Source: Eledone cirrhosa
Lineage: Eukaryota
Length of the DNA: 64,000 nucleotides
Assembly (NCBI GenBank): GCA_964016885.1
Contig: OZ024745.1
Location: forward strand, 65,658,001-65,722,000
Direction of reading: 5' to 3'
Part shown: positions 43,606 to 51,913 of the stretch, in pieces
Position numbering within the stretch: the first letter of the stretch is position 1
Layout: the number at the start of each line of letters is the position of its first letter
Program-made: the position numbers and the translations under genes
Notes under the pieces: generated by a model
Databases searched by the model: none
What the model saw: the letters and a program-made list of their open reading frames with translations, nothing else
Told to the model about the DNA's origin: nothing

Positions 43606-43737
43606 ATCTATCTATCTATCTATCTATCTATCTATCTATCTATCTATCTATCTATCTATCTATCTATCTATCTATCTATCTATCTATCTATCTATCTATC
43701 TATCTATCTATCTATCTATCTATCTATCTCTCTCTCT
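43606..43737. repeat. (TATC)n microsatellite, ~30 units, plus short (TC)n; 5' flank/target of the retrotransposon
   Basis: Perfect ATCT repeat at 43606-43728, then TC repeats, immediately before the element's 5' end. Confidence 0.98.
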
Positions 43738-43760
43738 ACCAGACGCGTGTAAGAAAAAAC

Positions 43761-45886
43761 GTGAGTTTTCAGTTAAATTTTATATTATTGTGTAACTTGA
43801 CCCCCCGTCTGGACCTTCAGGTGGTGGGTCAACTCATTTTCGCCCCTACAGGGGCGAAATATTCGTTTGAAAAATTTTTTCTCCATCGAATTTTGGAAAA
43901 AATATATTATAAGTTTGATTACGTTATGAACGCTGCATTCAACGATAATGGTGGTGGAGAGGCGGTAAGACTACAGAGCTCGCAGTCAACACCGTCTTCT
44001 TCCCTTTCCTTCTCAATAGATACTATAGAGATGGAAAGACGAAATGAAAATGTAAAAACAAATTCATATCCAAACAACACAAATGACACCAAACAGTTCA
44101 ATGACAACAAAAATAACAGCAACACCAATAATGATGATAAAAACAACAATGATAACAACAACAAAGAAAAAAATAAAGACAACACCAATAACGCCAGCAT
44201 CAAAGACAACAACAACACCAACACCAACACCAAGGAAAATACGAATAATATCAACATCGGTGACAACAAGAATAACAACAACAATAACAACAATAATGAC
44301 AACACCACCAACACAAATAATTCCACAAAGAAACTAAAATCTCATTTGCACAGACAGTTCAGAAAAAAGAGGAACTGACATATCTAGACATAACAAATGC
44401 CAAACAACTTTTAAAGGACGCTAGGAGATATGGCACTTTCGAAAGAAATGGTGCTTTCAGCATCAATTCTCCGGTAGAAATTCGCAAGGAAACTGCTCTC
44501 AAAACGATAGTTTTTAGGACAGTTTCCAATTCTACCCGAAAACCAGTCCAATTGTCACAGAAAGAAATTGAACTGGTTTTCAAAAATTCAATGAATGATA
44601 TTGCATTCATTCAAAGAAGCAAACCTTTTGGGAGTATTTCGGTACTCATGAAGGATCAATTGACGGCCCAAAATTACTGTGTCGCCAATTGTATCCAACC
44701 TGTACACCTTTTTCCCTACATACATGGGAAAAAGGACACAAAAGATCAAAATCATGAGTGTCACACCAAAGGTGAACATATGGTGGATACTGTGCGGCTT
44801 CATCAATTTTGATGAAGACAGAATACTGTCAGTAGGAAAGTCCCCCAGAGATGTATTCAATGTGACTAGCATTGAAGTTCTGGTGCAAATGAGCCCAGAC
44901 CGAATAGCTATGATCCCACAACGTGTACTCCTGGACGGACTCACCTACATAAACTTTTCGGTTGAGGGTAGGCGGCCTTCATGTTACCATTGCTTTAGCA
45001 GGGGTCACCTGAGGGCTTCCTGTCCTAAATTAATGAGTAAAAAAAGGCTCTTCTGCCGACACCCATCAAAACAACACAACCCCCAACACTACCACAACAA
45101 CAACAACACCAACACACAAAAATAACCACAGCAAACACAGTCTCACCCAACCCCACTCCACCTAAAACCACTGCAAAATCACATACAGACACAACAGCTC
45201 CCCAAGACATACCCCTCCCCAATCACACAGACGATACAACAGATAAGGCTATCTCGCCATCACCCAGGAAGACGAGGGAGAACGCCATCGCTCGAAAAGA
45301 AAGAAAAGACATCACAAAAGCAAAAAACCAGCAAACACTACCACAAACATACAACCACCAACACAAACAACAAATACATCACAAACAAAACCCCCACGTT
45401 CTGAAAACAAAATACCTACAACAAAACGAAAGCACACACAAGAACTACAGACAAAAACAAACACAACACAAGAAAATTACACTTACACTTACATAAACAC
45501 TGAAAACAAAACACTAATGGAGACCATCACGAACGACCCTTCGGTGAAAACCGAAGGGAAAACTTTCGCCCACTCTATTAAAAATAACAAAAATCTGAAC
45601 CTAAAACTGATTAGGGTCCCTATATAAACTTATAGGTCCCTAAAAGAAACATTTGAGAAGGATGTGGTGAATTCCTGCGTGAAACCACTTAACCGCATCC
45701 TTCTCAAATGTCTCCCCACCCCAGACACCCCCATCCCACCAGACCCCACCCCACCAAACATCTCCGTCCCCACCCCGCCGGAACAACCCATCCAGACAAC
45801 CCCTCCAACACCCCCATGGAAATTATGCGGCCAGGTCCCCAGGAGACGAAGGGTGACTGATTTCTTTTCCTCTTTTAAATTTTCAG
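43761..45886 (+). other. Putative spliceosomal intron spanning all of ORF1
   Basis: Donor AAC|GTGAGT at 43761. Branch-like CTGAT at 45857-45861, polypyrimidine tract and TTTTCAG| ending at 45886, followed by CACCAAC-ATGG (ORF2 start). Prediction only, with no transcript evidence. Confidence 0.5.
43926..45860 (+). pseudogene. Retrotransposon ORF1 (gag-like, CCHC zinc knuckle), frameshifted
   Basis: ATG at 43926 (MNAAFNDNGGG...) and an Asn-rich tract. Continues across frameshifts near 44370, 44705 and 45040. CX2CX4HX4C knuckle CYHCFSRGHLRASC at 44982-45023, then a Pro/Thr/Gln-rich tail. The 3' end is approximate. Confidence 0.75.
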
Positions 45887-45893
45887 CACCAAC

Positions 45894-49561: not shown

Positions 49562-49647
49562 TATTTTTATACGCTTGTTTGTAAACTCCCCACTTTGTAT
49601 TTGTATTTGTCCCCATCATTTGTGACCCTGTGGCAAATAAAGAAATA
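49562..49647 (+). mobile_element. ~85-bp 3'-end stub of a related Tx1-type element (copy 2)
   Basis: Similar but not identical to the last ~85 nt of the copy 1 3' UTR. Ends CCCTGTGGCAAATAAAGAAATA|TATCTATCTATCTATC. Confidence 0.85.
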
Positions 49648-49733
49648 TATCTATCTATCTATCTGTTTCCCCGACTGTTTATTTATTTATTTATTTATTT
49701 ATTTGTTTATTTATTTATCTCTCTATCTATCTA
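49648..49733. repeat. (TATC)n/(TATT)n spacer microsatellite between element copies
   Basis: TATC x4, then an ATTT run, then TATCTCTCTATCTATCTA up to the copy 3 junction. Confidence 0.9.
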
Positions 49734-51826
49734 CGGGCAGATTCCCAGTTCTGTAGGCAGAGGCGTAGTAACGCTGATCAGGAAAGATGATAACAAGGGG
49801 GATGAGATAAGAAATTTCAGGCCCATAACTCTGCTCAACACAGAGTTAAAGATTTTGGCCAAGGTGTTATTGTCGAGAACCTGGTAGGGGAGCGCAAACG
49901 TGTGCAATCCCGACCAGGTCCATACACGACAACCTCCACCTCATGCGATAAATCATAGAGAGGGTAGGGTCTAAACCTGGCTTGGGTGAGGCTCTGATCA
50001 ATTTAGATTAGTCTAAGGCATTTGATAGGGTCGACCATCAATACTTGGAGGCGGTTCTCAAGGCGGCCGGCTTCGGTCCCGTCTTCAGAAGCTGGATCGC
50101 TGCCATGCACACCAGCATCTGCTCGGCAGTCAAGGTGAATGGCTACCTATCGGAGCCATTCCAAATCATGCGTTCCATCAGTAAGGGATGCGCTCTCTCT
50201 TCCATTCTGCATGGACGGACTCTCGCGCCATTAATGCAGAAGTTGAAGCGGTTACAGGGAATCCCGATAAAACCAGGACTGCGGAAAGCAGTAAAAGTGT
50301 CGAAAACCTCGGAAATCGGGATAATCGGCGACCTATTACAGGAATACGAAACGTTGACAGGAGCATGACTAAACCCAAACAAGTTTGTCGGTTTGCAGCT
50401 CGGCACTTGGAGAGGCAAACCCATGCCTTCCGACAGTGTCGTTGGACGCTGGACGGAAGGACAGGTGAAATTGCTCGGGGTCTGGTTTGGTCCAGACCTC
50501 TAGGTGGACAAGAACTGGAACGAGGTCACGGCGTAAGTGTTTGCACTCGCCCGGAAGTGGGATGAGTGCAAACTCTCCTTGAAAGGTCGGGTGGCGTCCG
50601 TCATCTACTACCGCTTGACAGTCGTGCCTTGCCCCGCAAACACCTCACCAAAATGGAACGCCTACTGTTCAAGTTCCTCTGGAAAAACAGGCTTCATTGG
50701 TGAGGGATCTATCTGCTGTCAACACCTTTCTAACGGAGGGCTGGGCATGCCGTGGCTGATGATGCGCAAACACGCGCTGAGATTACGCCATCTCCAGGTA
50801 TTCCTGACCGGCGAACCGGTATGGCTGTCGTTTGTGAGACGAGCTCTTCCACAACTCGTCTCACTAACAGAGCTGCAGTCCTGGGTCAAGCGAAGACCGA
50901 AAATGGGCGCCTGGCACCTCGAGTGCCTTCAGGTGCTCACAGCCCTCTATCAAGCGGAAACGGCAATCAGCGGAGACTCCACTTCCACATTCTATAGGGG
51001 ATTAGTGGAGGATAAGTGCGACGACGTTCTCTAGGCATCGAGGAGGACAAACTGACCAGTCTGTTCGGGAGGACTTTCCGTACAGGGCCTATGGATAACT
51101 TCCAGAAGTCTCTGGCCTGGCAGTGCTACCGAGGAGCTCTACCAGTTCGAGACAAAATCTACAGGCACGGCCGCTCTGGTAAAGATCCTGCCAGGACCTG
51201 TCCAAGATGCGAGCAGGACATCGAAATCGTTGCCCAGAGGTGACCGATCTGTGGAATTATGTCGAACAGCTACTGTCACGTGTGGGACGCATCCAGTTGT
51301 CAGCCGAGTCCATCGTGAGGTTCACTCCGTCGCCTTCATTTGTGAATGAAGGAGAGGCGGTTTTCCTCTGTCTGGTGGCTATGGTGAAAGAGGTAATATG
51401 GTGGACGAGGTTAAAAGGACTGAGGGAAAACACCTTTCTCTACGGACAAAAGCTAATCCCCTTCTTTAAGTATCACTTCAGAAGGAAGGTGAGAGTAGAG
51501 AGAGAGGTGCTACATCCCAGTAAATTTGCTGAAAGGTCGGTGAATGTGACTAAAATGGCCCGAGTGAATGGGTCTTCTCTGTATATAAACCTGTAGGTTG
51601 AGGAAGATAAAAAGAGGGAAGACGGAACACCTACAAAACGTGTTCCTGGTGTTGAGGGTTGTAAAACAACCCCGTAGTAACTTTCCACCCTAATGGGGAT
51701 TTCGATTGTTTTATTTTATATATAGTTTATTGTTATTCATCATTGTTAAATATTTTATGTAAAACCTCCGCCGTCACGTCTTGTAATGTCCCATTTCTGT
51801 ACGCCCCTGTGGCAAATAAAGAAAGA
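49733..51826 (+). mobile_element. 5'-truncated, diverged Tx1/L1-type element (copy 3, ~2.1 kb; RT to 3' UTR)
   Basis: Starts mid-RT, aligning to copy 1 from ~47364. Colinear with copy 1 ORF2 but with stops and deletions. ORF2 stop at 51596. Ends CCCTGTGGCAAATAAAGAAAGA|TATCTGTCTATC. Confidence 0.93.
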
Positions 51827-51913
51827 TATCTGTCTATCTGTCTGTCTGTCTGTATATATTATGTCTATCTGTCAGTCTGTTTATTTATCAATTTATCTAT
51901 CTGTCTGTCTGTC
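51827..51913. repeat. Degenerate (TATC/TGTC)n microsatellite; 3' flank of the retrotransposon cluster
   Basis: TATCTGTCTATCTGTCTGTC...TTTATCTATCTGTCTGTCTGTC. Confidence 0.85.

Follow-up and report, generated by a model that had tools for sequence, protein, structure and literature searches.

Three copies of a probable Tx1-clade retrotransposon lineage within a TATC/GATA microsatellite

Three element copies in one repeat tract

We analysed a 64,000-nt stretch of DNA (the window) from the 3.0-Gb genome of Eledone cirrhosa, in which three copies of a long interspersed nuclear element (LINE) lie in a microsatellite tract of the form (TATC)n, or (GATA)n on the other strand. The copies, all on the + strand, were compared with one another and with their genomic relatives. 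The tract opens at 43606..43739 with 33 TATC copies (98% matches by Tandem Repeats Finder, TRF) and no element 3' end precedes it. Copy 1 (43740..49547) starts directly after (ATCT)33 and CTCTCTAC, and its 5' end was set by 447 genomic matches; it is a full-length, dead member of family A, with a 33-bp deletion near the 5' end and nine frame-breaking indels. A short decayed TATC spacer (49548..49561) leads to copy 2 (49562..49647, start approximate), an old 3' stub of ~85 bp that is 79-83% identical to the family ends. After a further TATC tract that is partly decayed to (TTTA)n (49648..49732, from the sequence and TRF) comes copy 3 (49733..51826), an old, broken and 5'-truncated element of family B that begins at about ORF2 codon 474. 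Its start, ~49733, is preceded by CTCTATCTATCT. The downstream flank (51827..51914) is a decayed TATC/TGTC tract (TRF 72-77% matches).

The three copies end alike. The motif CCCTGTGGC(T/A)AATAAAGAAA (also written CCCTGTGGCWAATAAAGAAA) was found at 49526-49545, 49626-49645 and 51805-51824, and is followed by CA (end 49547), TA (end 49647) and GA (end 51826), respectively; TATCT comes next at all three ends, without poly(A). These are the positions and the arrangement that an earlier note, made from the sequence alone, had described, and its statement that copies 1 and 3 start right after the repeat tract also holds.

Could the three ends have arisen by local tandem duplication of a single insertion? 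A period of 100 bp was detected by TRF at 49500-49680, copy 2 has a single genomic match (itself) and thus no close relative elsewhere, and a probable tandem duplication occurs at another sampled locus (L039). However, copy 1 is 74.6% identical to copy 3 over 1,983 columns and its end is 78.7% identical to the copy 2 stub over 94 columns, whereas copy 1 differs from an uninterrupted family A copy (L037:3717-9559) by only 3.4% over 5,772 columns (96.6% identity). Because copy 1 is so close to its intact relative, copies 2 and 3 are not tandem duplicates of it. Moreover, copy 3 branches outside family A in the tree described below, inside the clade of TATC-associated elements, which refutes tandem duplication for this copy. 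We therefore regard a tandem origin of the array as scarcely credible, in agreement with the earlier note, which had called the insertions independent. Judged by their sequences, copies 1 and 3 are members of different family types (A and B), and of the three copies, copy 1 is the youngest; the second-best identities to other sampled copies are 97.7%, 83.1% and 86.2% for copies 1, 2 and 3, respectively.

The protein-coding layout is best read from the uninterrupted copy, which is 5,843 bp long and encodes an ORF1 (open reading frame 1) protein of 638 aa and an ORF2 protein of 1,145 aa. In copy 1 the ORF1 remnant lies at 43926..45857 (tblastn). The intact protein has an Asn-rich start and one putative CCHC knuckle; its Pfam zf-CCHC match is under the cut-off (E 0.24), and its Atlas look-alikes are CCHC clusters at 0.92 and one ZCCHC3-RBD cluster at 0.90. 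The ORF2 remnant (45894..49308) contains an apurinic/apyrimidinic endonuclease (APE) domain and a reverse transcriptase (RT, ~47429-48014), followed by a zf-RVT region. Corresponding Pfam matches in the intact ORF2 are PF03372 (2e-12), PF00078 (6e-27) and PF13966 (4e-6), and GDWN, YLDR and SDH, which we take to be catalytic motifs, are present by eye. The predicted structure of this ORF2 (predicted local distance difference test score, pLDDT, 85) has full-length human L1 ORF2p as its best match (E 1.3e-51, template modelling score 0.62, 17% identity), and a PDB sequence search with the element protein gave only a weak match, to the L1 endonuclease. None of the nearest database proteins has a name; one is 70% identical and 36 are 37-47% identical. 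An N-terminal APE, an RT and a C-terminal zinc-binding region constitute the layout of the L1 group and the Tx1 clade. The 3' untranslated region of copy 1 (49309..49547) has AATAAA at 49536-49541, six bases from the junction. Hallmarks of target-primed retrotransposons without long terminal repeats (non-LTR) are also present: a fixed 3' end, variable 5' truncation and target-site duplication.

(Note that positions 1-42140 of the window are occupied by a 42-kb satellite with the 9-bp unit ATTTTAGGA, in ~4,650 copies with 86% matches and with a 200-bp gap at its end; the unit looks like a lengthened TTAGG telomere repeat.)

TATC at the junctions across the genome

Exact matches to the 3' motif number 7,852 genome-wide, and the reversed control has 0; the abundance of the motif is thus far above chance. 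Two bases and then TATC follow the motif in 6,972 of these 7,852 ends, and in 26 of the first 30 loci. For a closer view of the flanks we took 80 stretches of 10 kb around matches at the start of contig C1, 20 of them picked for clusters and 60 by going down the list. These stretches and the window together contain 131 distinct 3' ends, of which 121 have a 5' junction in view, and represent at least nine family types. At 118/131 of the ends TATC occupies position +3. Poly(A), defined as five A's in a row within eight bases, was found in 0/131, as were the opposite orientation (0/131) and GATAGATA (0/131). The two-base spacer tends to go with the family (GA in 9/14 family B copies, TT in 4/5 family D copies). 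One target has been kept by the at least nine TATC family types over ~17-30% DNA divergence. The earlier note had spoken of one family: a single lineage is indeed present, with copies 1 and 3 belonging to different families within it. (Two odd 3' ends, L036 and the first end of L029, are single-copy. A family A fragment, L035:82-1340, has an internal end, GCAAACA and then TATC, apparently through the AAACA word that it has in common with the true 3' end.)

In the sampled loci, copies of different families are stacked head-to-tail. Such chains arise because TATC remains on both sides of a copy after insertion. The idea, also put forward in the earlier note, that newer copies land upstream of older ones describes the window and fails as a rule: of 31 neighbouring pairs, 12 have the younger copy upstream, 11 have it downstream and 8 are ties. 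Part of the element was found in 20 of 24 listed public sequencing runs, and at least half of its words in four runs, under two organism labels; no RNA run was among the listed holders, which says nothing about expression. In one run with the second label, X4, a single contig row runs from an element 3' end through TATCTA and TC into an interior point (window 49553 to 49265) and so resembles the head-to-tail chaining described here, apparently in a related species. (Note that in G000:C1:211931950-212413677 family A 5' ends are spaced ~2.6-2.7 kb apart, some of them inverted, perhaps reflecting a segmental repeat or a derivative with an internal deletion.)

TATC next to a 3' end could in principle be a tail encoded by the element, in which case the upstream TATC would derive from an earlier copy's tail or be added at insertion, and there would be no microsatellite target. 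The 5' junctions bear on this. TCTAY precedes 428 of 447 full-length 5' ends genome-wide, and a TATC tract lies upstream of 16/16 sampled full-length 5' ends that have no recognised element 3' end before them. Among the 121 sampled junctions, 51 are right behind another copy (40/51 abut TATC), an arrangement that a tail would also produce, and 70 are outermost (34/70 abut TATC). Upstream variants common to full-length copies likewise fit a tail, and their RNA may bring along a few upstream repeat bases; because the upstream TATC may come partly from the RNA, the full-length counts are weaker evidence than truncation points. Truncated copies cannot carry an encoded TATC at the 5' side because their 5' ends fall at arbitrary internal points. 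Nevertheless, outermost truncated copies abut TATC (at least 11 of 12 bases) in 27/57 cases without a recognised element upstream, and in 10/13 of the youngest cases, those at least 97% identical to a reference, compared with a background of 83/47,854 positions (0.17%). The earlier note had anticipated that an encoded tail would go with random 5' flanks; the 3'-end search it had proposed shows that they are not random.

The strongest evidence that TATC is the target and not a tail comes from duplications. In 10/121 copies a duplication of 11-21 bp starts at TATC and extends into non-repeat DNA (for example TATCTATCTAATAA, TATCTATCTCGA and TATCATTAACA), whereas shuffled controls averaged 1.2 and reached at most 5 in 200 shuffles. 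One of the 10, at L039, is probably a tandem duplication; two further cases, at the tiny stubs L102 and L105, were found by eye. Because the duplications hold TATC plus unique bases on both sides, TATC was present before insertion. Furthermore, the 3' end of copies such as L058 and L088 bears no more than one TATC. An encoded tail is thus largely refuted by the duplications, and we consider it very improbable. We are highly confident that the lineage targets TATC/GATA microsatellites in one strand and phase.

Several observations weigh against this conclusion. NN-TATC is absent from 880 of the 7,852 ends; among the 70 outermost 5' junctions, 36 do not qualify as TATC; 17/30 full-length copies end upstream in common variants, such as TCTCTAT or CTAC; and all of the flank samples, the window aside, come from the start of a single contig. 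Among the 36 failing junctions are self-matches to incomplete references and older copies, and some may be later interruptions of old copies. Among the public-run contigs listed for window 43700-52900 (runs X1, X4, X5 and X8) and for L088 (X4, X5, X7 and X10), where family copies crowded the listings, none connected the two flanks of an insertion; this result carries no weight for or against an empty site.

Choice and change of target

These data directly support a preference for this target with strand and phase fixed, duplications that start at TATC, an absence of poly(A) and chains of head-to-tail copies. We assign a probability of roughly 85% to the reading that the window contains three independent insertions, with a single orientation and phase, of an APE-type LINE lineage (likely Tx1) into (TATC)n/(GATA)n, likely through an endonuclease that nicks the GATA strand. 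In the mechanism that we propose, the endonuclease would nick the bottom strand beside TATC and leave a primer ending in ...GATA-3'. The transcript would read through AATAAA into the downstream (UAUC)n, the RNA end would pair with the GATA primer, and reverse transcription would begin ahead of any poly(A). (AATAAA lies six bases before the junction, under the usual distance of 10-30 bases between AATAAA and cleavage.) A second nick ~11-17 bp downstream would yield the duplication. Since each insertion would keep TATC on both sides, the site would stay usable and chains would lengthen.

The earlier note had attributed the choice of target to an endonuclease specific for TATC/GATA with fixed strand and phase. 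Targeting, strand and phase stand; that the endonuclease is the sole determinant is only inferred. Targeting could instead be real and set mainly by RNA-DNA pairing, with a loosely specific endonuclease that nicks AT-rich repeats and with only those nicks that pair with (UAUC)n able to prime. In favour of this explanation, the absence of poly(A) from all 131 sampled ends and the family-linked two-base spacer point to a transcript extending into the repeat, and the core TAT is common to TATC and to the ATT repeats targeted by the sister families described below. In addition, parts of PMC1950540 describe nicking in vitro as less defined than integration sites and name RNA-DNA pairing as a possible extra factor. 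On the other hand, (TC)5 follows only 81 of the 7,852 ends, scattered over subfamilies, and at 23 such ends the 5' junction is TATC in 11 and (TC)n in 1; a (TC)n-targeting offshoot was rejected on these counts. At least nine family types have, moreover, kept a single target despite their divergence. Because a (TC)n offshoot was not seen, we lean towards an enzyme-led cause: the enzyme probably sets the target in the main, and control chiefly by RNA pairing seems unlikely, if by no means negligible. The Tx1L endonuclease was reported, in the same source's account of in vitro work, to nick its own target almost exclusively (PMC1950540).

Relatives with another target are found in the same genome. 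Family T1, which was reached from one outlier locus, has 2,059 genomic matches. Its 3' flanks are ATT-like in 54/58 cases and TATC in 0/58, and its 5' junctions are ATT-like in 29/56 and TATC in 0/56, against an ATT background of 134/17,901 (0.75%). Conversely, ATT was found in 0/131 3' flanks and 0/121 5' flanks of the TATC set. No T1 duplication running into unique DNA was found except one 9-bp case, so that T1 targeting rests on truncation points. A second family, T2, has ATT-like flanks in 12/13 cases and an uninterrupted ORF2 that is 69% identical to that of family A. (A tRNA-like short interspersed nuclear element (SINE) of ~185 bp, whose end, GGCCTTGTGCCWAAAGTAGAAAC, is near the T-family 3' end, was seen at L243:8012-8272, L258, L256 and L246 and at ~60 ends. 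ATT repeats come next in 26/60 of the ends and TATC in 0/60. The SINE is likely mobilised by the ATT families; its assignment to tRNA was made by eye, on a B-box-like motif.)

A tree of 27 rows placed all 12 TATC rows, window copies 1 and 3 among them, in a single clade (support 100/99), with T1 as its sister (98.8/93) and T2 outside; a separate tree gave the same order. Because the TATC families form a single clade nested among ATT families, one switch from (ATT)n to (TATC)n is the likely direction, and the TATC lineage would descend from (ATT)n-targeting relatives, which the genome still contains. Were RNA pairing decisive, the arrival of a single source copy in a TATC tract would suffice for the switch.

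As to residues, the endonucleases of five TATC and six ATT copies have 47 positions without a common residue. At one of these, position 194, Ser is found in 5/5 TATC families and Ile or Met in 6/6 ATT copies. The position falls in a stretch that aligns with the L1 hairpin, which has been proposed to read the minor groove (PMC1950540, in part), and is a candidate, one of 47, for the change of target within the predicted minor-groove hairpin. Two points tell against an endonuclease-led switch in this direction: the direction depends on a distant outgroup (branch 0.75) in a tree made without a topology test, and the 47 differences are no proof of cause because they follow phylogeny. Our tentative proposal, on which we would not wager at even odds, is that an undescribed Tx1-like lineage has been caught in a target switch: changes at a few residues would have redirected its APE from (ATT)n to (TATC)n, and both forms survive in one genome with uninterrupted ORF2s.

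It is an open question by what route APE-type retrotransposons acquire and alter their target specificity. With two closely related lineages whose repeats exclude each other, the search shrinks to a few dozen positions of the endonuclease, and the roles of enzyme and RNA become separable. Loop grafts between distant enzymes altered nicking without transferring the donor site, as excerpts of PMC1950540 relate; if the switch was endonuclease-led, the two forms (69% identical) would offer a close natural pair for decoding or reprogramming APE target choice. The lineage also splits and multiplies thousands of GATA microsatellites in this genome, which matters for marker design and repeat annotation. 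Because GATA repeats are common in animal genomes, the human genome included, an element that targets them is of interest for site-directed insertion.

Comparison with known elements

Human LINE-1 ORF2p is the best whole-protein fold match to the intact ORF2, at 17% identity. L1 uses poly(A), and a mammalian-type poly(A) tail was found at none of the 131 sampled ends of the TATC lineage. The human L1 site is a loose TTTT/AA (PMC1950540, from the portion consulted). Among elements that target microsatellites, T1 and T2 use the same repeat class as Dong, which is a member of the R4 clade with a restriction-like nuclease; Waldo and Mino belong to the R1 clade. T1 and T2 differ from all three in carrying the APE domain of the TATC lineage. 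Sections of PMC3812793 give the target of Dong as (TAA)n; the targets of Waldo and Mino are ACAY and AC.

The TATC lineage is likely a member of the Tx1 clade, as placed by trees that lacked named Tx1 references. In RT trees it lies near two metagenome elements inserted in U2 small nuclear RNA (snRNA) and apart from plant L1s (SH-aLRT, an approximate likelihood ratio test, 86, or 88 with one more clade), and it has the target-sequence preference that is a feature of the Tx1 clade. Those two elements, L143 and L148, are joined to U2 snRNA at one site, with poly(A) and then AGTATCTG at the junction; poly(A), a gene target and ~39% identity in the RT region set them apart from the TATC lineage, in a neighbouring clade. 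As Keno is a Tx1-clade element with a U2 snRNA target (PMC4640811, in the text available), they may be termed Keno-like by target alone. (In both, at L143:4675-4885 and L148:5815-5977, TATC also stands two bases past the junction, by chance or as an old shared recognition core. In a more distant relative, L162, the ORF2 match stops at 7447, and a match to U1 snRNA, poorly fitting in its first part, lies at the end of the contig (9202-9356); L162 is possibly U1-targeting.) TATC tracts were found in none of the flanks of 30 of 54 metagenome loci (relatives 25-50% identical), a result that is uninformative on the range of the target.

The closest parallels in habit are Kibi, in (TC)n, and Koshi, in (TTC)n, which are teleost Tx1-clade elements, and the crocodilian Tx1 families in (TTCC)n and (TTTC)n (PMC4494074 and PMC3812793, as far as their available text goes). 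Like them, the elements described here are APE-type non-LTR retrotransposons with microsatellite-specific insertion. Unlike them, these elements use (TATC)n/(GATA)n, which is not pure pyrimidine, and are present in thousands of copies and at least nine family types alongside (ATT)n sisters. The (TC)n target of the Kibi type was not found in the TATC lineage, given the 81 ends noted above; Kibi and Koshi are set apart here by target repeat, and (TTC)n was not counted separately. The targets of Tx1 or APE elements named in the consulted parts of PMC4494074 and PMC3812793 are (TC)n, (TTC)n, (TTCC)n, (TTTC)n, ACAY, AC and TAA, and GATA is not among them. No GATA- or TATC-targeting LINE was found in the literature, in a search outside Repbase and Dfam; a repeat of this kind may be named in Figure 3 of PMC4494074. 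Cephalopod L1-Tx1 families have been catalogued (PMC13282606; PMC8967140); within the text available, the former does not contain the word 'target' and the latter names no target. Microsatellite-targeting Tx1 elements as such are already known; apparently new here are the GATA target and the close ATT-targeting sister pair.

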